Of a stretch of 62,786 bases of DNA, positions 1 to 62,786 are shown piece after piece. Origin of the DNA: a virus. The translations under genes were made by a program, and so were the position numbers. The notes beneath the pieces were generated by a model. It saw nothing but the letters and a program-made list of their open reading frames with translations, made no database searches and was not told the origin of the DNA. Position 1 is the first letter of the stretch; each line of letters opens with the position of its first letter. The DNA is taken from positions 1 to 62,786 of IMG/VR virus record IMGVR_UViG_3300036975_000025; one strand, 5' to 3'.

Positions 1-127
1 AAATAAGCAGACTTGCTGTTTTAATCAATAGAATTGCCTTGAGAATAGACCCAAATGGAGATGATAAAGTGTGAAGCCCTGAAAGGAGGAGATCGTGAGT
101 GATGACATCCGCATTATCGCTGAGGGC
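1..127. repeat. Exact 127-bp terminal direct repeat, copy 1 (= 62660..62786)
   Basis: 1..127 is identical base by base to 62660..62786. It carries the 3' end of CDS 62344..62733 and the 5' end of CDS 95..529, so the window closes into a 62,659-bp circle. Confidence 0.95.
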
Positions 128-2216: not shown

Positions 2217-2663
2217 ATGAAATACCTACTCTTAGCATTCCTGCTCCTGCTCCTGCTCCCGGTATCGGGATGGGGTGGAGAAATCCATTACAAAGCATGG
2301 AGAGATGGAGGCCCAGCACCTTGGGAATATGAAACACATTTTATTATCTCTCGTTACATGGAGGACAATGTTGTCTTCAACGTGCAGGGTGCATCTTCGG
2401 GAGAAATCCGAATAGAGCACTGGCTTAAAGGAGCGGAACCTTGCGGGGGAGATTCAAAACCCTACCAAATCCGCACCATCCCTGCCGATGAGTGCAATGA
2501 ATTCCTGCGGGAATATCCTGAGTGGGAGCCGTATGATACCACTTGGTTTCCGTCGCAAGACTTCTTGGATAAGATTCGTTCAGGGGAAACCTTGTTTTAT
2601 ACAGGAGGCCCAATGAAAGGCTGGTTTGGGTTTATACACCTACGCCGCCGCTTGGAGGAATAG
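2217..2663 (+). CDS. Secreted hypothetical protein (148 aa)
   Basis: AAAGGAGG RBS; N-terminal signal peptide MKYLLLAFLLLLLLPVSGWG. Confidence 0.6.
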   Translation: MKYLLLAFLLLLLLPVSGWGGEIHYKAWRDGGPAPWEYETHFIISRYMEDNVVFNVQGASSGEIRIEHWLKGAEPCGGDSKPYQIRTIPADECNEFLREYPEWEPYDTTWFPSQDFLDKIRSGETLFYTGGPMKGWFGFIHLRRRLEE

Positions 2664-2717
2664 TTTCCTGGGCAGGAAAACCGGGGGAAGTAGGAAAACC
2701 GTAGAGGGGAGGGGAAA

Positions 2718-2996
2718 ATGAGAATTAGAGGATATGCGTTTCAGGAAGATGAAAAAGAAAGGCAGAAACAATTCAGAGAACAATATAAAAAGATTAAACA
2801 CCTTGGAAAAGAGATTACTATCCAAAAACAACCGAGATATGGTCATACAGTTTTCAGGGGAAGTCTAGATACCCCAGAAGCTCAAAAATTGAGTTGCCTG
2901 GAAATTGCTTTAATTGCAGATCATGGAAACCTGTGTTTTGGAGGGCAGTGTACAAAAACAGGGAATACTTTCTACGGATTGTATTGGGTAGACTAA
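2718..2996 (+). CDS. Hypothetical protein (92 aa)
   Basis: GGGGAGGGG RBS upstream of the ATG. Confidence 0.5.
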   Translation: MRIRGYAFQEDEKERQKQFREQYKKIKHLGKEITIQKQPRYGHTVFRGSLDTPEAQKLSCLEIALIADHGNLCFGGQCTKTGNTFYGLYWVD

Positions 2997-3036
2997 ATCT
3001 CCTGCATCGCCTTGAACAGCATCCATGGAGGGGAAA

Positions 3037-3306
3037 ATGGCTACAAAAACACTAGACGTTACAATTACCGTGGAAGTGACAATAGACGAAACTAAATTCA
3101 CCTCAAAATTCATGGAAGAATTCAATCGGCATTTTTTTCAAGCAGATATAGATGAACATTTCAAAAACATTGCTCACGGTGAAGCGATGGGCTTGATTTC
3201 CGGTTTTGGTGAAAATAGGTTCCTGGAGGGCTATGGAAAACTTTCAGACATGGGGATTTCAACCGTTGTTGTAGATGAAGAAGTTGAGCCTGCCGTGGGT
3301 TATTAA
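3037..3306 (+). CDS. Hypothetical acidic protein (89 aa)
   Basis: The second in-frame ATG is preferred because GGAGGGG lies just upstream (the track ORF starts at 3025). This is the last gene of the plus arm. Confidence 0.5.
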   Translation: MATKTLDVTITVEVTIDETKFTSKFMEEFNRHFFQADIDEHFKNIAHGEAMGLISGFGENRFLEGYGKLSDMGISTVVVDEEVEPAVGY

Positions 3307-5583: not shown

Positions 5584-5708
5584 CGAATGAGTTTAGGGAA
5601 CATGCGCGGCCACAGGTACACGACCAATAACACCAGGGCCGTGCAGGAGAGCCCCAGGAATGCCCACAGAAGAATTTCATGTAGGTATATGGGGAGAAGG
5701 GCAAGCAT
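5562..5708 (-). CDS. Small hydrophobic protein, holin-like (48 aa, below track threshold)
   Basis: My translation is MLALLPIYLHEILLWAFLGLSCTALVLLVVYLWPRMFPKLIRWIWPKT. TAATG overlap with the upstream gene; overlaps the start of the hydrolase gene. Confidence 0.4.
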   Translation of the reverse strand: MLALLPIYLHEILLWAFLGLSCTALVLLVVYLWPRMFPKLIRWIWPKT

Positions 5709-6598
5709 TAGTATTGAATCACCTCGTCAAGCAGAGCCTTTTCAATCTCAGGATCTACAGGGTAGAGGTAGCCGGTAGCCCATCCAATGCTCTTTGCCTG
5801 CGCGCCATTCATCCAGTATTCCTGATCCCTCAATTTCTGGGCAAACGCTTCCTTGGTCATCCCCACCCTTTTTGCAAGCCATGAATTAATCGTGTCCTGG
5901 AAATGATTGAGAAGTTTCGTTTTTTTCTTGCTGTCCGTTGGGGTGGAAATCTCAAAGAATGTGAACGTAGCCAATTCGTGCATCATCAGTTCAACCGTGG
6001 GGGACATAAGCCTTTTATCAGCCGCACAAAAGATGATGAATGCAGCGCTCGCAGCAATAGACCGCACCTGAGTCGTTACGTCAAAGCCCATGGCCTTATA
6101 CTGCTCAATAACTGTAACCACTTTCCATCCACTAAAAATGGACCCGCCAGGTGATTCTATGTCGATAATGATTCGTCGAATGCCGTGCCGAGCAAGATAC
6201 CGGAGTGCATCTTCTAGAAGCACCGGGGTCGCTTCACGAATGCCAATGTTTAAAGTAAAGAATCCGTACTTACCCTGATCGTCTTCATAAACCTTTAGGA
6301 GAGCAGGATAGTCAAATTGGTCGTGGGGATCGGTTTCCTTAATCTTCTTGAAGTCACGGCCTCGACAATGGCACCACAGGCATTTGTCCTGATCGGTCAT
6401 TGTGGTGAACGGACAACGGGCAACGCCTTCGTCTTCAGATTCCTCATCCCCCGAAGAGGCCGAAACTTCTGCCCGTGCTTCCGGTTCCGCCCACACCATG
6501 CTAGGTAAAATGGACAATGACACAATTAGGGCAAGGATAATCGCCAAGATTGGCACACTCCACAAAAGGCTAATGTTGCTATACTTTCGGTATTTCAT
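5708..6598 (-). CDS. Membrane-anchored/secreted S49 (SppA) / ClpP-fold serine peptidase
   Basis: IIIDIESPGGSIFSG...SIAASAAFIIFCAADKR...MMHE are ClpP/S49-type blocks. N-terminus MKYRKYSNISLLWSVPILAIILALIVSLSILPSMVWA/EPE. ATGA-coupled start at 6598 with a GGAAGGGAGAG RBS. Confidence 0.75.
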   Translation of the reverse strand: MKYRKYSNISLLWSVPILAIILALIVSLSILPSMVWAEPEARAEVSASSGDEESEDEGVARCPFTTMTDQDKCLWCHCRGRDFKKIKETDPHDQFDYPALLKVYEDDQGKYGFFTLNIGIREATPVLLEDALRYLARHGIRRIIIDIESPGGSIFSGWKVVTVIEQYKAMGFDVTTQVRSIAASAAFIIFCAADKRLMSPTVELMMHELATFTFFEISTPTDSKKKTKLLNHFQDTINSWLAKRVGMTKEAFAQKLRDQEYWMNGAQAKSIGWATGYLYPVDPEIEKALLDEVIQY

Positions 6599-6771
6599 GG
6601 CTTCTCTCCCTTCCATTCGGCCAATACGGTAATCTCATGGGTAGCTTTTTCCAGAATGCGGATGGCTTGAGTGATGCGGATCATGTCAGGGTCGTGGGAG
6701 CGAGCAATTTTTTCTAGGCAGACAGAAGCGTTGCGACAAGTGTGTTGGATTTCGCTATCTAGGCTCTTCAT
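6595..6771 (-). CDS. Hypothetical small protein (58 aa)
   Basis: Internal ATG (MKSLDSEIQH...) chosen over the track start at 6819. The stop is coupled (ATGA) to the peptidase gene. Confidence 0.35.
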   Translation of the reverse strand: MKSLDSEIQHTCRNASVCLEKIARSHDPDMIRITQAIRILEKATHEITVLAEWKGEKP

Positions 6772-6925
6772 GGATGCCACCCCTTGTCCCGGCAGTGGTC
6801 GTCGGGGCGTTTTCATCAATCAACATCCCAGAAACTGTATGCGTATAAACGTATTGAATGACATCGTATCTATCAATAATATAGAACAGCGCAGCAAATA
6901 GTATAATAACAATTAGTGTTCTCAT
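6755..6925 (-). CDS. Small membrane protein (56 aa, below track threshold)
   Basis: My translation is MRTLIVIILFAALFYIIDRYDVIQYV...; ATGA overlap with the upstream stop. Confidence 0.4.
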   Translation of the reverse strand: MRTLIVIILFAALFYIIDRYDVIQYVYTHTVSGMLIDENAPTTTAGTRGGIHEEPR

Positions 6926-7260
6926 GATACCATGTTCAGAACAATTTTTCTAAGTTCTCTAATATCTTGCCTTAATTGGTCGTACTGGTCTTTTATTTGG
7001 CTCTCCATTCCTTCCTGCTTTGTTTCAATTGTTGATATCCGACCGTTTAACTCTCTTTTCTGGATATAATGCTCATCACAAAATCGCCGTACCGCTGCTT
7101 CATCCATTACACTTGTCATAGGACAATCCATGGGAGGAGGTGAAGACGTCTTTTTACCTAAGTTTTCAAAAAGAATGTGAGGATTTTGCAAAATATAGAA
7201 CAAAAAAACGACAACCATAAGAGCAGTGGTAATCTTAACACCAGCAAATAAGTCGAACAT
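6922..7260 (-). CDS. Membrane-anchored coiled-coil protein (112 aa)
   Basis: Start at MFDLFAGVKITTALMVVVFLFYIL (AGGAG RBS); C-terminal heptad-like segment. Confidence 0.5.
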   Translation of the reverse strand: MFDLFAGVKITTALMVVVFLFYILQNPHILFENLGKKTSSPPPMDCPMTSVMDEAAVRRFCDEHYIQKRELNGRISTIETKQEGMESQIKDQYDQLRQDIRELRKIVLNMVS

Positions 7261-7475
7261 GTCAACTCCTATTAAGAAAGTGTGCGCCCCCGCCAACCGC
7301 CGCACGGAACGTGACGGGAAGTCTTGGCCTCACAGTCCTTATTTCCGGGCTTGGCGTGATCCGTGCCGTTTCGACCCCGTGCATACCCTGCGAAGAACGC
7401 ATGCTTTTCCTTCACGACGCACAAAAATGAGGGTGCCCCTGTCCTACCTTGGGTCCGTTGACCCTACTATTTACG

Positions 7476-8312
7476 CTACCTGCGGCTCCGTGTCCTTCGA
7501 TTGACGCGGGAACGGGGACCGGCGCCCTTCGATGCTTTCTTGATTGTCACGGTGTAGCCGGAGGCATCATCGAAATCGAATCCAGCATCAATGGATTTCC
7601 ACGCAACATAAATCCCTTTTGCTCCACACGTATCAACGCTACTTGCGACAAAATTCTTAAAATTAATAATTTCACCATTTACATTAATGTCAGTATAAAT
7701 TCCTAAACGAGCGCCAACCACATCAGCCAATGCCGTTTGATAAGAGGCTCTATCTATATAGGCAGCAGTTGTCGCCGCAAGATCCTTAGTAGTAGTGCCA
7801 AACGCGCTACCCGCACCTCCAGACCAGTAAAAACCCGCGTTGTCACCCCCTGAAGTCCCTTGCTCTATTGAAAGATAACTTACATACGGAACGTGTTTTT
7901 CAACATTCCCCGTCTTAAATGACCCTTGTGAGGACGCGGTTCTGGTTAGTTCATAATGGTCTACATTAAAAGCCAACGTTGCATCAAAGGAGGTCCAGTC
8001 TCCTGTATTATCCGCAGAGCAATCGTCTTGTGCGATTATCGTTTCGTTTGTCGTTCCACTCCCCTTTACTCCACCATCTCCTTTGGCTATATTGCCACTG
8101 GCATCTATGACTTCAATAATGTAATCCCCGGTTGTCCCGCTTCCATAGTCCGTTCCTACGTCCCGACCGTCCGGGAACCAAATAAAGCCGTTCGTAGAGG
8201 TATAATTAGCAACCAAACAACAGGTCGAAAAGGAGGTTGTACCCGATGCTGCCCAAGCAAGGGAAGGGGAAAGAAGGGCGAGTATAAAGACAATTATGTA
8301 GAGGCGCTTCAT
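7476..8312 (-). CDS. Secreted late protein (278 aa), Gly/Thr/Ser-rich
   Basis: Signal peptide MKRLYIIVFILALLSPSLAWA/ASG. The start overlaps the end of the open frame 8309..8530. Confidence 0.6.
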   Translation of the reverse strand: MKRLYIIVFILALLSPSLAWAASGTTSFSTCCLVANYTSTNGFIWFPDGRDVGTDYGSGTTGDYIIEVIDASGNIAKGDGGVKGSGTTNETIIAQDDCSADNTGDWTSFDATLAFNVDHYELTRTASSQGSFKTGNVEKHVPYVSYLSIEQGTSGGDNAGFYWSGGAGSAFGTTTKDLAATTAAYIDRASYQTALADVVGARLGIYTDINVNGEIINFKNFVASSVDTCGAKGIYVAWKSIDAGFDFDDASGYTVTIKKASKGAGPRSRVNRRTRSRR

Positions 8313-8530
8313 TTTGGCACCTCCTTTTTGATATCTGTGGGTATACCACCTGCACCATTAGGCTTTTCGATGTACTTATCTTGAATGGTGTCGTAAATCA
8401 TCAAATTATTCCATAGAATCACTTGTGGATTGCCATTCTTATAATGTACTTCTTCATACTCTTCCAATGGCCGAAAAAATGCTTCTATGACTGCGTTCTC
8501 TACGGGTATCCATACCCGCTCAGGACCGTT
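8309..8530 (-). other. In-frame open segment downstream of UGA 8531..8533 (candidate recoded extension, 73 codons plus stop)
   Basis: Same frame as 8531..8752. No ATG/GTG with an RBS. Ends in an ATGA overlap with the next gene. Translation NGPERVWIPVENAVIEAFF...DIKKEVPK looks protein-like. Confidence 0.45.
8503..8518 (-). promoter_or_regulatory. Hairpin CGGGUA-UGGA-UACCCG 12 nt downstream of the in-frame UGA (SECIS-like / readthrough-stimulating candidate)
   Basis: Perfect 6-bp stem with a 4-nt G-containing loop, read directly from the sequence. Confidence 0.4.
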
Positions 8531-8752
8531 TCATGTGGGACACCGGACCTTCCCGTTTTTGAATTCCGTTACCAAAGGAGGGCCGGGGGCAGGGGTGCAA
8601 CCACCTTCTGCGTTCAACCGAAACACCATGCCGTTGTACTTCTGCACACAGAAAGTCGTATCGTTGACCGTGATTTTCCCGAATACTCCAGCCGCCCCCA
8701 CCCACGCAGGCAAGATCAGTAGGCAGAGGGCTGTCAGAAATACTCGTTTCAT
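8531..8752 (-). CDS. Small secreted protein (73 aa to the UGA) ending ...RCPT-UGA
   Basis: AGGAGA RBS; signal peptide MKRVFLTALCLLILPAWVGA; the last residues C-P-T precede the TGA. Confidence 0.65.
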   Translation of the reverse strand: MKRVFLTALCLLILPAWVGAAGVFGKITVNDTTFCVQKYNGMVFRLNAEGGCTPAPGPPLVTEFKNGKVRCPT

Positions 8753-8775
8753 GGTGTCTCCTGTAATGACGATGG

Positions 8776-9642
8776 TTACGGGACTTGGGTCGGATCAGCC
8801 GTCCACTGCTTGATCGACAAACCACCTGCACTGTTCCCGGCAGGGTCATACCAAAACCGCTCCCATTCGTAGGGTTTCAGAATAATTATTTTCCCATCCT
8901 CCAGAATGCTGGTCGTGGTGGAAGGCGTGGTACTTCCGTCTGTCGTGTAATTGATATCATCCCCGATGGTCTGAACTTCAATCGCCCTGGCCCCGGCTGC
9001 AACCTCTATAGCCGTGGTGCCGCTCCAAAATTGAGTTACCCCTGTTGTGGCAAAGGCAGAATAGTCTTGGTCTATCAGGAGAGGGGAAGACTCGTAGAAG
9101 TCGCCTTCTTTCCCTGGAAAAATGCGAAACTCCGCATGATCGAAAACGGTTGTACCCGAGGCCGTCACGAACCCGAACCGTACATAGGTATTGGCCGGCA
9201 ACCGGGCCCACTTCGGCCCTGCGGTATTGTTGGTCGTGGCCGTAACCGTCTCATCCTTGTAGAAATAGAACCTCTCGGCATAGGTCCAGGTATCCGGATC
9301 AAGGGAGCACTCTGCGTAGAAATCAAAGTCCTTTGAGATCGTCCCGCCTAAACCTTGCTGGGCCTGAGAGGAATCGAGGTCCATCAACTGCACGCCGTAC
9401 CAGGGTCCGTACTCGTTGGCATTGAAATACTGTGTACCGTCAGCCCGGGTGATGTTGTCGTCGTTGGGGGCATCGAGGTACATGGTCGAGGCGCCGGAGG
9501 CATACGTGGTGTTGCCTGTATCGGTCAATCCTATGTAGGCCGTCATGTACGGGATCTTCCCGAACATCGCCAAGGGGTCGGCGTGCGCGGTTCCCATAAG
9601 GCCGAAGAGCAGAATCAAGGCAAAAACGATTGTCTTTTTCAT
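8776..9642 (-). CDS. Secreted late protein (288 aa)
   Basis: Start at MKKTIVFALILLFGLMGTAHA/DP, an internal Met of the track ORF; beta-rich composition. Confidence 0.6.
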   Translation of the reverse strand: MKKTIVFALILLFGLMGTAHADPLAMFGKIPYMTAYIGLTDTGNTTYASGASTMYLDAPNDDNITRADGTQYFNANEYGPWYGVQLMDLDSSQAQQGLGGTISKDFDFYAECSLDPDTWTYAERFYFYKDETVTATTNNTAGPKWARLPANTYVRFGFVTASGTTVFDHAEFRIFPGKEGDFYESSPLLIDQDYSAFATTGVTQFWSGTTAIEVAAGARAIEVQTIGDDINYTTDGSTTPSTTTSILEDGKIIILKPYEWERFWYDPAGNSAGGLSIKQWTADPTQVP

Positions 9643-9716
9643 GGCTTGCTCCATAAGAAAAGCCCGAAGGCTCAAGGCCCACGGGCTTCTCAAATAAGAT
9701 ATAAAAGTTTTTTAGG

Positions 9717-25891: not shown

Positions 25892-26619
25892 TTAAGTGGT
25901 CACGCCGGTCTTGGCCTTGTGGCCCTTCCGGTTGTTCACGACCAGGTTCCCGTCAAACAGGATCTTCATGGTCCGGTCGTTCGGAGAGCCGGGAATGACC
26001 ATCCACTTCGTTCGCATGAAGTAGCCCTTCTGGTGGACGGCGAAACCGACATGGTTGGTGTTGAGGGCCAGCAACGTACCGCTGGTGGTTCCGGTCGTCG
26101 GGGCATAGTCGTCGGGGAAGTAATCCGCCCCCTCGAACTCAACGCCCGTGAACCCCACCTTGGCGGTCCTCTCGGACTTCACAAACCGTTGCTGGGTCTG
26201 AAGAATGGAAAGGATCTCGTTGAACAGCCACTCAGGGCTTACCAGGAGATCCGGCTTACCCTTGGCCCCGTCCCTGATCTTCGCGTCGGTCCGAATGTCC
26301 CGAAGCATGTCCAGGGTGATGGAGCCAGCGCCCGTGTCCCGCTTTCCTTCCCACGGGTAGGTGCCGTCCGCAGCCATCAGGTCGCCTTCCTGAATCCCCC
26401 CGTACGCCGTGGTCGTGGTCTCATGGCAGCACGCCATAAGTCCCGTCAGACGCTCGGACAGGCCGGTAGGCTCATCGTAGATGGAGTTGGCAAGTACCTT
26501 GGTGAGGGATTTCTGGGCCCCGCCGACACGCTGCTCGACCAGTTGAACCTCTGCATAGTCGCCAGCGTTCTTCAGGGTGTCGATCCGGTAGATGGTCGCG
26601 TTGCCGTAAGCGTGCTTCC
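25892..26619 (-). CDS. Major capsid protein, exon 2
   Basis: The frame is open for 79 codons upstream of the first ATG (26437) with no ATG/GTG/TTG. It is in phase with exon 1. The joined product is 330 aa and lies after the scaffold gene. Confidence 0.7.
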
Positions 26620-27600
26620 CAGTGCTGTTACCGCAGGGCCATTTAAGCCCTGCTTCTGCATGTCTCCATGCAGCTCAGACTATATCATCACCCTGTTCAC
26701 CTACAGAGTGCCGGGCGCTCGTGGGCAGGATTATTGTTGGGACTCACCCGCCTAGTCGTTGAACCTTCCTCAGAACCTTCGCCCTCTGAGGCTTGGCTGC
26801 TGATTGCCCTCGCCTTTACGTTAGGGGATTCCAGCAATTCACCCGGTTTTTCAGAGTAGTGAATGAATATATGGCAAGACTTGCAAACGGTTATACCGTC
26901 TTCAAGCCGGTGAAGGGCGACAACCATTTCAGCGATCTTTATCTTGTCCTCTGAATTTTCGATAGAAAGCTCAGGGTGGTCAGAAATAACCGCATCCATG
27001 ATGTCTTTGAGTGGCCTCAAATGGTGAACATGGTTATTGCGATAGTGTCCGCAAAGGCGGCAAGTGAAATTATCACGTTCCATTACCGGGAATGTCCAAA
27101 CAGGATAAAGCGCCCTTCGAATCATGTCCGTAAGGGTTGAAATGCCTCCCTGCCAATTGTGATGATTCTCCCCGGACCTATGCTTATTGGAGCAGGTAAT
27201 GCAGCGTTCAGCGTGATAAAACTTATTCAACTTGCATCCGCAATCAATACAATAAGCATCTGGAACATATTTTCGATAAATTCCAAGCCGTTGAGCCTGT
27301 GTTTTAATTGCAGGCTCAGTTCTGTCTAAATGTTCAACCATTTTTGCAAGTGGATATCCTTTGTCAGGATAATGCCGGGCAAGATACCTGTTCTCTGCTT
27401 TGGTCCAAGTAGTATGTGTACCGCAAAGGCCCAGTTGAGTCGCCTTATGCCTGATAGAGTTAACCGACCTCTCCAACTTTTCAGCAATGTCCATAGATAG
27501 ACCACGCCTATAATTGGCTATTAAAAAGTCGATTTCTTCTTTTTTCCACCTGCTAGCCATAGCCATATCTCACTATTCTGGAGCTAATTCATGCTACTTA
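26620..27600 (-). mobile_element. Group I intron (981 nt) with HNH homing-endonuclease ORF, inside the major capsid gene
   Basis: On the minus strand, P-like GAAUUGCUGGAAUCCCC (26824..26840), Q-like GCAAUCAGCAGCC (26795..26807), R-like GGUUCAACGACUAGG (26751..26765) and S-like GAUAUAGUC (26678..26686) occur in the canonical order. P4 (UUGCUG/CAGCAG) and P7 (GACUA/UAGUC) pairings are possible. 7-bp hairpins follow at 26630..26671. Confidence 0.8.
26697..27566 (-). CDS. Intron-encoded HNH homing endonuclease (289 aa)
   Basis: Two SANT/Myb-like repeats (WKKEEIDFL..., WTKAENRYL...), a Cys4 zinc module, and an HNH core CRLCGH..NNHVHHLRPL...CKSCHIFIH. The low-complexity C-terminus overlaps the intron core. 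Confidence 0.85.
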   Translation of the reverse strand: MAMASRWKKEEIDFLIANYRRGLSMDIAEKLERSVNSIRHKATQLGLCGTHTTWTKAENRYLARHYPDKGYPLAKMVEHLDRTEPAIKTQAQRLGIYRKYVPDAYCIDCGCKLNKFYHAERCITCSNKHRSGENHHNWQGGISTLTDMIRRALYPVWTFPVMERDNFTCRLCGHYRNNHVHHLRPLKDIMDAVISDHPELSIENSEDKIKIAEMVVALHRLEDGITVCKSCHIFIHYSEKPGELLESPNVKARAISSQASEGEGSEEGSTTRRVSPNNNPAHERPALCR

Positions 27601-59866: not shown

Positions 59867-60973
59867 ATGAAGGGGGGAATCTACGAGAACAAGGGAAAGT
59901 ATGGGGCAAGGTGGATCGTCCGGTATCCAGGGGGAATCTGGCGGCGCTTTAAGGTCTATGAGGATGCAGAATCCTTCCTCATCGCCTTGAACTACCGGGA
60001 CCAAGTAGAGGGTGGAGTGGACCCAAGGGACTACCGGAAGGACGTGCCACTCGGGTTCATGACGTTGGCAGACCAATGGCTTGATGTGAAAAGATCGGAA
60101 GGCCTGCGGTCTCTGAAAAATCCTATCAACCACATCCAACACGCCGCGCGGTTTTTGGGAAACCGGAACGTCAAGGACATTAGGTACGGTGAACTGGAAG
60201 ACCTCTTGAAGCACTTGAGGCAGACCACGGACCTCTCGGGGAAGTCCCTGCACGACATTTTCACCACGCTCCACACGTTTTTTAAGTGGGTATCCAGGCG
60301 GGAAAAGAAGTTTGAAATGCCCGACTTCCCCACCATTAAGTACGAGTTGAAATACAGGCAGACCGTGGACTTTGAAACACGGGCCAAAATCCTCGAGGAA
60401 GTGCGCCGGCTCTCATGGAAGGAAAATCCCAAAATCTATCTAGGCATCCTGTGGCTCTCTACCTATCCCATCGTGCGACCCATCGAGCTCTTGCAGGTCT
60501 TGGAACGGGACATCGACCTTTCCAATGGGACCATCACCATTACGCGAAGCAAGGTCAGGGGACAGTACAAACGAATTTACCTTATCGAGGAAGACGTGGA
60601 CACCATCCGGACCCTCCCCCGCGGTATGCCGTTGATGCCGTTCTTCCGGCATGAGAAGAAGAAAGGACAACCCGCGGGGAAGCAATTTGGCAAAGACTAT
60701 TGGTATTCATGGTGGAGGAAGGCTTGCAGGAACCTCAGCATCAAGGGCGTGAGCCTCTATCCCGGCACCAGGCATTCGACAGTCACGGGGCTGGGGGATG
60801 AACTGAGCCCTGAAGAGATCATGGCGGGAGCATCGGACCATCGGACCAACAAAGCCTTTGCCCGGTACTTCCACTTGAAGGCAGAGCGCAGGAGGGCTAT
60901 TTCGAGGCACATTCGGCTCAAGCAAACCTGCACATCATCTGCAACGGCAAATGGAGCAGGTGAAGAGGATTAA
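59867..60973 (+). CDS. int: Tyrosine integrase
   Basis: AAAAGGAG RBS before MKGGIYENKGKYGARW. Core-binding and catalytic domains are present, with R (RPIELL), PGTRHSTVT, and ASDHRTNKAFARYFH (H..Y). Confidence 0.9.
   Translation: MKGGIYENKGKYGARWIVRYPGGIWRRFKVYEDAESFLIALNYRDQVEGGVDPRDYRKDVPLGFMTLADQWLDVKRSEGLRSLKNPINHIQHAARFLGNRNVKDIRYGELEDLLKHLRQTTDLSGKSLHDIFTTLHTFFKWVSRREKKFEMPDFPTIKYELKYRQTVDFETRAKILEEVRRLSWKENPKIYLGILWLSTYPIVRPIELLQVLERDIDLSNGTITITRSKVRGQYKRIYLIEEDVDTIRTLPRGMPLMPFFRHEKKKGQPAGKQFGKDYWYSWWRKACRNLSIKGVSLYPGTRHSTVTGLGDELSPEEIMAGASDHRTNKAFARYFHLKAERRRAISRHIRLKQTCTSSATANGAGEED
60927..60943 (+). repeat. Arm-type direct repeat CCTGCACATCATCTGCA (left of the core)
   Basis: 16/17 identical to 61057..61073; together they flank the tRNA-like core. 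Confidence 0.55.
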
Positions 60974-60996: not shown

Positions 60997-61028
60997 TGGT
61001 GCCGAAGGGGAGACTCGAACTCCCCGAC
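60997..61028 (-). other. attP core candidate: 3' end of a tRNA (T arm + acceptor + CCA), tRNA-Leu-like
   Basis: The minus strand reads GUCGGGGAGUUCGAGUCUCCCCUUCGGCACCA. No matching 5' acceptor half (GCCGAAG) lies within 100 nt, so this is a fragment and not a gene. Confidence 0.7.
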
Positions 61029-61056
61029 TAGCCTGATTTTCCTGCAAAAAATCCAT

Positions 61057-61073
61057 CCTGCACACCATCTGCA
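61057..61073 (+). repeat. Arm-type direct repeat CCTGCACACCATCTGCA (right of the core)
   Basis: Partner of 60927..60943. Confidence 0.55.
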
Positions 61074-61142
61074 CATCCTTCTCAATTTTTCAGCTTGGAG
61101 ACAGTCTGGAGGCAACCGAGGCTGTCAAGGAAAGGAGAGATC

Positions 61143-62343: not shown

Positions 62344-62733
62344 ATGGAACTCCGTAAACTGGCAGAAAAGATTGCCCGAGAAATCATGACAATGGAATAT
62401 GCCCATGGGTCTGTAGTTGTGGAACGCATTGCCATGATGAAAAAGCAGTCTGATGGGAGTGAAAGAACCCTTGGAGGACGGTGCATGTCCAGTGTTGCAG
62501 ATGTCATTGAAAAACACTTGGCCGATGAGCCTGACCGCCCCGTCGAGGACGCCCTGCGGGAGAGGGTGCGGGAAGAAAACACGCTTTCTGTCATGCCCCT
62601 TATTGGCCCATTGCTAGACGCATGGGATGATTTGCCAAACGATGTCAAGGGTGCTTCAGAAATAAGCAGACTTGCTGTTTTAATCAATAGAATTGCCTTG
62701 AGAATAGACCCAAATGGAGATGATAAAGTGTGA
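62344..62733 (+). CDS. Hypothetical protein (129 aa); C-terminal module paralogous to 1122..1472
   Basis: GGGGGAGAAA RBS; C-terminal AWDDLPND...DPNGDDKV; its 3' end lies in the terminal repeat. Confidence 0.65.
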   Translation: MELRKLAEKIAREIMTMEYAHGSVVVERIAMMKKQSDGSERTLGGRCMSSVADVIEKHLADEPDRPVEDALRERVREENTLSVMPLIGPLLDAWDDLPNDVKGASEISRLAVLINRIALRIDPNGDDKV

Positions 62734-62786
62734 AGCCCTGAAAGGAGGAGATCGTGAGTGATGACATCCGCATTATCGCTGAGGGC
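62660..62786. repeat. Exact 127-bp terminal direct repeat, copy 2 (= 1..127)
   Basis: Identical to 1..127. Confidence 0.95.

Follow-up and report, generated by a model that had tools for sequence, protein, structure and literature searches.

Does a stop codon inside a conserved phage reading frame separate two genes, or is it read through within one? This question is raised by the locus 8309..8752(-) of IMG/VR virus record IMGVR_UViG_3300036975_000025, which we analysed over its whole length of 62,786 nucleotides (nt; in the following called the window), a complete circular phage genome with the standard genetic code. Here, an open reading frame (ORF) of 73 amino acids (aa), 8531..8752(-), MKRVFLTALCLLILPAWVGAAG...KVRCPT, ends at a TGA (8533..8531). 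The same frame then stays open for another 73 codons (8530..8312), NGPERVWIPVENAV...KKEVPK (beginning also given as NGPERVWIPVENAVIEAFFRPLEEYEEVHYKNGN), before it stops in an ATGA overlap with the gene for a 278-aa protein. An initial annotation had described this layout, which we confirmed in the sequence in all its elements, and had interpreted it as one gene with a recoded UGA. That interpretation is supported by conservation of the downstream frame as a protein, by the presence of the TGA and of the frame in all nine relatives and by homology to single-chain proteins, whereas gene callers annotate two genes in the relatives, none of which has a Cys at the UGA column. On balance, we lean toward 8309..8752(-) being one gene that is still decoded through its UGA, with selenocysteine insertion and near-cognate readthrough taken together.

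Conservation of the UGA and of the reading frame

The fused product found no homologue in a word-indexed search and had no match in Pfam or PHROGs. Likewise, no match was obtained by blastn against GenBank phages, by peptide-pattern scans of IMG/VR, JGI metagenomes and GTDB genomes, or with Rfam over 8250..8800. An exhaustive HMMER search returned self matches only, and profile searches against PDB sequences and NCBIfam gave nothing useful. Relatives were obtained via a 90%-identity cluster member (P0003) of the 52-aa ORF called at this locus by JGI, which led to a 1080-bp JGI contig (L003), via homologues of the 278-aa neighbour, which led to L004, L005 and L006, and via a profile of the fused sequences. 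From the latter came six further small proteins, and look-up of five gave contigs L008 to L012. Together with the window, these nine metagenome relatives give ten junctions in all. Their samples and assemblers differ (JGI, Logan, ENA), and they represent about seven lineages with 52-88% DNA identity.

The stop codon is TGA in all ten junctions, and the ORF upstream of it always ends with [R/K/E]-C-P-T, of which CPT is invariant. Next to this stop, the codons for C, P and T (TGY, CCN and ACN) are each found in two synonymous states among the relatives. The stop codon of the 278-aa gene, by contrast, varies among the same relatives (TAG, TAG, TGA, TGA, TGA). Downstream of the TGA, the ORF continues in frame without an intervening stop in every case, and the only insertion or deletion in the linker that follows the UGA, 6 nt in L011, which has a longer linker, preserves the frame. 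The linker itself is variable (NGPER, NGTER, DGPVR, RGTQR, LDGQR, LRGER, PPGAVRP). The base following the UGA is C in seven junctions, A in two, G in one and U in none; the ordinary TGA stops of the window are followed by G (five), T (four), A (one) and C (one). Judged by these bases, the UGA lies in the 3′ context of a weak terminator, and this context is conserved among the relatives.

The downstream frame is conserved at the protein level, with a ratio of nonsynonymous to synonymous differences (pN/pS) of 0.4-0.5, a property that the initial annotation had named as a test of its proposal. Values lie below 1 on both sides of the UGA. Codons 6-19, which would be lost with an internal start, have a pN/pS of 0.4-0.5 at a synonymous divergence (pS) of 0.5-0.9, in pairs that include lineages lacking a start codon upstream of them. 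The coding signature of the downstream frame is 0.19 per codon, compared with a mean of 0.26 for the genes of the window (5th percentile 0.09, range 0.09-0.42).

Signals for a separate start are scarce. In none of the ten members does a Shine-Dalgarno sequence precede the downstream ORF; sites of the GGAG type are common among the genes of the window and precede both neighbours. Within the window, no in-frame ATG, GTG or TTG lies between the UGA and a TTG at 8467, and no candidate start of the downstream frame is preceded by a Shine-Dalgarno sequence, in agreement with the initial annotation. This TTG is replaced by CTG in the close relative L004, and initiation at the TTG would cost the first third of the HNH_3-like domain described below. 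Gene callers disagree on the same DNA: Logan leaves 8313..8530 uncalled, and JGI calls the 52-aa ORF from TTG 8467. Among the relatives, GTG is present at codon 6, the Val of a conserved R-V-W, in L005, L006, L008, L009 and L012, at the homologous Val (codon 8) in L011, and at codon 4 in L004, two codons before the conserved Val. The window, L003 and L010 have GTA at that Val and no start codon until codon 19-22. Hence, no start codon is conserved in position (codon 4, 6, 8, or none before 19-22).

TGA is a genuine stop elsewhere in this genome, as had been stated initially: among 31 long ORFs, 16 end with TAA, 12 with TGA and three with TAG. An alternative genetic code is ruled out by these 12 TGA-terminated ORFs, which include this gene at its own end. 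No other convincing TGA-split gene was found within the window.

Between the window (8387..8540) and L003 (213..366), a patch of 154 nt beginning shortly ahead of the UGA is identical except for 2 positions; the flanks on either side are 76-88% identical, and L004 does not share the patch. It may have arisen by recent recombination or gene conversion, or it may reflect constraint at the nucleotide level.

Protein homology and genomic setting

Which protein does the interrupted frame encode? The window's own sequence has no direct Pfam match. In L008, the downstream ORF (P0015) scores above the Pfam threshold for HNH_3 (PF13392; 25.5 bits, cut-off 24.8) from its residue 4 and covers positions 2-39 of the 46 in that profile. 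With hhalign, the family profile matched the HNH core of Gordonia phage UBSmoodge gp51 (94% probability, E 1.3e-7), pairing VWIPVENAVIEAFF-RPLEEYEEVHYKNGN..NNL of the family with the gp51 segment that ends ..NNLEL. For the upstream half, the only direct Pfam match was that of the mature L008 upstream ORF to NUMOD4 (PF07463), which is weak (E 0.048, 14.3 bits, cut-off 23.4).

Both halves together were matched by tblastn with the joined mature sequence, which returned 81 phage records, those listed being mostly annotated as HNH or other endonucleases, with individually weak E-values. Nineteen of these records cover at least 80% of the query and therefore span the UGA, and three matches that contain NUMOD4+HNH_3 according to Pfam could be aligned with the family over the whole length. 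A family profile with X at the UGA aligned to a canonical NUMOD4+HNH_3 profile in one piece (86.9% probability, E 4e-6, columns 2-96). A comparison with I-HmuI also spans both halves (45% probability) and serves as a lead only. AlphaFold predictions of each half alone reached a pLDDT (predicted local distance difference test score) of 58-61. The alignment of the joined halves to single-chain NUMOD4+HNH_3 proteins indicates that the two ORFs were formerly a single gene, with the UGA in its middle.

In this alignment, CPT-UGA-xGxxR appears as an insertion of ~8-10 residues between two motifs, with a gap in the canonical homologues. At the column of the catalytic His, the family has Tyr (clade A) or Leu (clade B), and the NN pair is lost. 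With the catalytic His replaced in this way, nuclease activity has probably been lost, and the protein is probably a non-nuclease derivative of the HNH fold.

A more distant locus, L007 (IMGVR_UViG_3300042731_006959, 2300..3150), has the homologue of the 278-aa gene directly after the preceding large gene, without the pair of small ORFs. This makes the UGA-containing gene an accessory insertion, in line with an origin from a homing endonuclease.

The ATGA overlap with the 278-aa gene is kept in every relative whose downstream ORF end is covered. A GGAGGTG ahead of that gene is conserved among the relatives as well, and the C-terminal EV of the downstream frame is conserved because this Shine-Dalgarno sequence is encoded there. 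The principal features are listed in Table 1.

Table 1 Coordinates of features discussed in the text, given as positions in the window.
Feature	Position	Strand	Details
Upstream half	8534..8752	-	Predicted signal peptide (~8690..8752) and NUMOD4-like beta region ending in the invariant RCPT
In-frame UGA	8531..8533	-	Candidate recoding site
Linker	8516..8530	-	Five codons, NGPER; part of the family-specific insertion CPT-UGA-xGxxR
Hairpin	8502..8519	-	GCGGGUA-UGGA-UACCCGU; 7 bp, -9.0 kcal/mol
Downstream half	8312..8515	-	HNH_3-like domain (VWIPVENAVIEAFF...EEVHYKNGN...NNLMIYD) and variable tail
TTG	8465..8467	-	First in-frame start codon (codon 22); start of the 52-aa JGI call
Shine-Dalgarno sequence of the 278-aa gene	8318..8326	-	AAGGAGGTG; within the last codons (KKEV) of the downstream frame
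Terminal TGA	8309..8311	-	End of the downstream frame; overlaps ATG 8310..8312 of the 278-aa gene
Next gene	7476..8312	-	278-aa signal-peptide protein; handle for finding relatives
tRNA-like element (host clue)	60998..61074	-	tRNA-Cys(GCA) call; the corresponding host tRNA gene would carry ...GGGGAGTTCGAGTCTCCCCTTCGGCACCA

The locus lies in a gene cluster (5708..9693(-)) downstream of the gene for a 2079-aa protein with a DarB-like C-terminus. The cluster genes that were read encode proteins of 288, 73, 278, 112 and 56 aa and a ClpP/NfeD-like protease (5708..6616), with N-terminal signal peptides or transmembrane segments; the downstream ORF alone among them has neither of its own. Such an envelope-targeted gene cluster is unusual for a phage late region. 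The genome further encodes a terminase, a P22-like portal, DnaB and an integrase-like gene. An exact terminal direct repeat of 127 bp (1..127 and 62660..62786) shows that the assembly closes circularly at ~62.66 kb; in Logan, the same contig has a length of 62,689 bp. A group I catalytic intron at 26656..26907(-), a full-length Rfam match (93.8 bits, E 7e-23), sits in the structural module between ORFs 26697..27566(-) and 25892..26437(-), neither of which matches Pfam.

The hairpin and the selenocysteine question

If the UGA is decoded, is it read as selenocysteine (Sec)? The initial annotation had pointed to a C-x-x-U motif and to a perfect hairpin 12 nt after the UGA, with its loop at 18 nt, as a possible selenocysteine insertion sequence (SECIS). 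The hairpin was found as described, with its core CGGGUA-UGGA-UACCCG at 8518..8503; one additional G.U pair extends it, so that 11-12 nt separate it from the UGA. Numbered from the U of the UGA, it occupies nt 15-32, with the loop at 22-25 and a G at position 23. The same stem is present in L003, L004 (with loop GGCG) and L010. In clade B a different hairpin, GGUGUG-GGUC-CACAUC, lies 2 nt further on, and L011 has no hairpin in that place. The window's hairpin has a z-score of -0.2 against dinucleotide shuffles (76 nt) and of -2.7 against mononucleotide shuffles (51 nt). On its own it is weak evidence.

The consensus of bacterial SECIS (bSECIS) elements comprises a loop of 3-9 nt and a stem of 4-16 bp with a G in the first two loop positions, at 16-37 nt from the UGA and with a minimum free energy of -7.5 kcal/mol or lower (PMC13188914). 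With a contiguous stem, the window, L003, L004, L008 and L010 fall within these limits (-8.5 to -10.0 kcal/mol); the hairpin of L005, L006 and L009 is weak at -5.2 kcal/mol, and L011 falls outside the consensus. Only 3% of the TGA trinucleotides in the window precede a contiguous-stem hairpin that follows these rules, which speaks for a SECIS function, and 35% do so when bulges are allowed, which speaks against it. The minimal SECIS of Escherichia coli fdhF comprises nt 15-31, with bulged U17, G23 and U24 as determinants for SelB (PMC8659212). The phage hairpin matches its position. Of the determinants it has only G23: position 24 is G (C in L004) and there is no bulged U. As the host is not E. 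coli, this comparison is no more than indicative. Across the family, the hairpin is not conserved in register (RNAalifold consensus -2.8 kcal/mol). We found no covariation: in the register of the window 77% of the cells pair, and no pair is altered on both sides. The case for a SECIS element is thus weaker than initially put: the hairpin fits a permissive published bacterial model, and the expected conservation in register, compensatory changes and full set of E. coli determinants did not emerge.

Other features of the gene bear on the same question. C-P-T directly before the UGA is invariant, so that the C-x-x-U motif is real at the level of the family, but it sits in a loop insertion rather than in a thioredoxin-like context. 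The UGA lies in mid-domain, as selenocysteine codons do. The conserved cysteines of the mature protein are odd in number (three; four in L004) and become even with a selenocysteine. The hairpin stem requires GUA (13%) and AUA (10%), the least used codons for Val and Ile, which likewise counts in favour of selenocysteine. Against selenocysteine stands that nearly all selenoproteins have a homologue with cysteine (PMC13188914). The initial annotation had asked for such a Cys at the UGA column; none was found among the ten relatives, in a profile search of 5.8 billion clusters or by exhaustive HMMER, and the canonical HNH homologues are gapped at the site.

A resemblance to PB1-like Pseudomonas phages concerns this column. 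A protein of such phages aligns through GKCTTCNGSGQVWI with a Cys at the position of the UGA; the match is not significant at database level (E 0.6), and its query was biased by the Cys placed there. In Pseudomonas phage NP3 (KU198331.1 53996..54772), a PB1-like phage protein annotated as "DnaJ" has two GKCTTCNGSGQ knuckles, the second followed by VWINEW. This context mirrors G(KV)RCPT-UGA-NGPERVWIP of the window; the resemblance, if real, would provide the missing Cys counterpart of the UGA.

The window holds a single ARAGORN tRNA call, a tRNA-Cys(GCA) (60998..61074(-)), which adjoins the integrase-like gene (59798..60973(+)). In this element the T arm and 3′ end are canonical, but the 5′ half is poor: the anticodon stem has 6 bp, the D arm is degenerate and the acceptor stem contains mismatches. 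Its best Rfam match is tRNA-Sec, with only 13.9 bits (E 4.7). A phage-borne suppressor tRNA or tRNA-Sec was rejected as the decoding agent, this poor tRNA-Cys being the sole call, and no tRNA-Sec was found in the window or in the related loci, a further point against selenocysteine. The element is probably an attP site or a tRNA remnant. Its last 29 nt have an exact match in one of 185,579 species genomes, a metagenome-assembled genome of Geopsychrobacteraceae, where they form an orphan fragment followed by a terminator (L013 2814..2842). This weakly suggests a host of the Desulfuromonadales type. Desulfuromonadales commonly use selenocysteine, so that this att-like fragment adds to the arguments in favour.

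Taken together, a selenocysteine at the UGA, with the hairpin acting as a bacterial SECIS for the SelB of the host and yielding an exported C-P-T-U protein, is a possible but doubtful interpretation. It is with the same reserve that we propose that a tailed-phage family, probably with Desulfuromonadales-like hosts, may encode an exported selenoprotein of non-catalytic HNH fold with a C-P-T-Sec loop and a phage-borne SECIS. No report of a phage-encoded selenoprotein was found in the literature searched, within the limits of that collection.

Competing explanations and comparison with known systems

The layout of the locus, the conserved TGA and frame, the missing initiation signals and the homology to single-chain proteins are shown here; we infer that the UGA is decoded, by which agent, and that the product is exported. 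In the scenario that we favour, the gene would descend from a single-chain NUMOD4+HNH_3 phage endonuclease of the I-HmuI type. It would later have gained an N-terminal export signal, three cysteines and the 8-10-residue loop insertion (C-P-T-UGA-x-G-x-x-R) and lost the catalytic histidine, with selection keeping the UGA in the loop. Most ribosomes would terminate at the UGA, giving an exported N-terminal product of ~50 residues. A fraction would decode it, continue into the HNH_3-like half to give an exported protein of ~125 residues, and terminate in the ATGA overlap, which would couple translation to the next gene. The UGA may be decoded by the host SelB, which would bring Sec-tRNA to the hairpin 11-12 nt downstream and yield C-P-T-U, or by a near-cognate tRNA acting at the weak terminator UGA-A/C/G. 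Readthrough by such a tRNA is about as tentative a proposal as selenocysteine, and we weight the two about equally. Recoding of either kind accounts for a TGA that never changes, for its weak terminator context, for the lack of initiation signals, for the start-less lineages, and for the second half being the only one among the cluster genes read to lack its own export signal.

Gene fission offers a different account, which we consider a considerable, though lesser, possibility. Here a nonsense codon would have arisen in the loop insertion of an ancestral NUMOD4+HNH_3-type gene, leaving an exported N-terminal half and a cytoplasmic HNH_3-like mini-protein that is made by reinitiation at GTG without a Shine-Dalgarno sequence. 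In the window, L003 and L010, reinitiation would be poorer and use a later TTG or ATG, with the hairpin masking the restart until the terminating ribosome opens it. Several observations fit this account or weigh against a decoded UGA. A separate start is available in most lineages, with GTG at the first conserved residue in six of the ten members and two codons earlier in L004; in clade B this GTG is part of the hairpin's 5′ arm. By pN/pS, evolution of the five linker codons is roughly neutral, and no sense codon occurs at the UGA site in any of the ten relatives. If a single nonsense mutation created the junction, the shared frame would simply be inherited, and only the indel of L011 would test it. 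Moreover, phage recombination, as in the patch shared by the window and L003, may lower the number of independent lineages. The annotation of two genes by the callers and the small size of HNH_3 on its own likewise suit an independent downstream protein. Fission leaves unexplained the invariance of the TGA and the missing U after it. Two deep lineages, the window with L003 and L010, have GTA and no start for 18-21 codons while the N-terminal part of the domain stays intact and under selection, and the TTG 8467 of the window is not kept in L004. No member has a Shine-Dalgarno sequence, and fission would place the two parts of what was one domain in separate compartments.

The UGA could also be disabling, with the downstream frame the fossil of a decaying homing endonuclease, or else an assembly or sequencing error. 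Homing-endonuclease genes commonly degenerate, and both the replaced catalytic His (Tyr in clade A, Leu in clade B) and the low G+C content of the segment (0.41 vs 0.51 for the window) would fit decay. Purifying selection acts on both halves across 30-45% DNA divergence, neither frameshifts nor further stops occur, and we regard this explanation as very improbable. An assembly error is ruled out, as ten contigs of independent sample and assembler origin have the same TGA.

Selenocysteine insertion and readthrough are known mechanisms of recoding; what is new is their candidate setting, a conserved in-frame UGA in a protein that is encoded by a phage, derived from HNH and predicted to be exported. 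Decoding of the UGA would make this a rare case of recoding in a double-stranded DNA (dsDNA) phage. With selenocysteine, it would be the first phage selenoprotein, and phages would exploit the Sec machinery of their hosts, with infection tied to the selenium supply. With readthrough, it would be a switch like that of phage Qbeta in a tailed phage. Either way, a selfish homing-endonuclease fold would have become an exported, probably non-catalytic protein by an unusual evolutionary path. Because the usual gene-calling programs divide or miss this gene, phage annotation as it stands does not reveal such cases.

Compared with NUMOD4+HNH_3 endonucleases of the I-HmuI type, such as ORF013 of Enterococcus phage phiM1EF2 and gp155 of Pectobacterium phage phiTE, the family has the same motif order and spacing (EW..V.VS..G.V, G.P...DG, VH..VAEAF, V..KD..NLE), and gp6 of phage TexasRanger shows that the core of two motifs can be as small as 111 aa. 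Unlike these enzymes, it has a signal peptide, extra cysteines and a UGA-bearing loop and lacks the catalytic His and the NN motif. In contrast to free-standing, selfish NUMOD4+HNH_3 genes, it is conserved within an operon of exported proteins.

The arrangement resembles coupled phage gene pairs with termination-reinitiation, including masked starts of the MS2 type, in its short distance from stop to putative restart, the lack of a Shine-Dalgarno sequence and the clade B hairpin over the GTG. It differs from them in the three members without a nearby restart codon and in the frozen identity of the stop. The other junction that was read, from the downstream frame to the 278-aa gene, has an ATGA overlap and a strong Shine-Dalgarno sequence in every relative.

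With bacterial selenoprotein genes such as fdhF, the locus shares an in-frame UGA in a conserved coding region, invariant among orthologues and part of a C-x-x-U motif, and a hairpin that begins 11-12 nt past the UGA, has G as its second loop base and coincides in nucleotide positions with the minimal fdhF element. Unlike such genes, it has no Cys homologue and no family-wide hairpin, its fold derives from HNH rather than from an oxidoreductase, it is encoded by a phage, and its product is predicted to be exported. In Qbeta, a leaky UGA gives a coat protein that is extended to the minor protein A1. As there, the UGA of this phage would separate an abundant short product from a rarer extended one, with no dedicated start for the extension. 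Whereas Qbeta is an RNA phage whose extension is an added domain, the present candidate belongs to a dsDNA tailed phage and has its UGA inside what was formerly a single domain.

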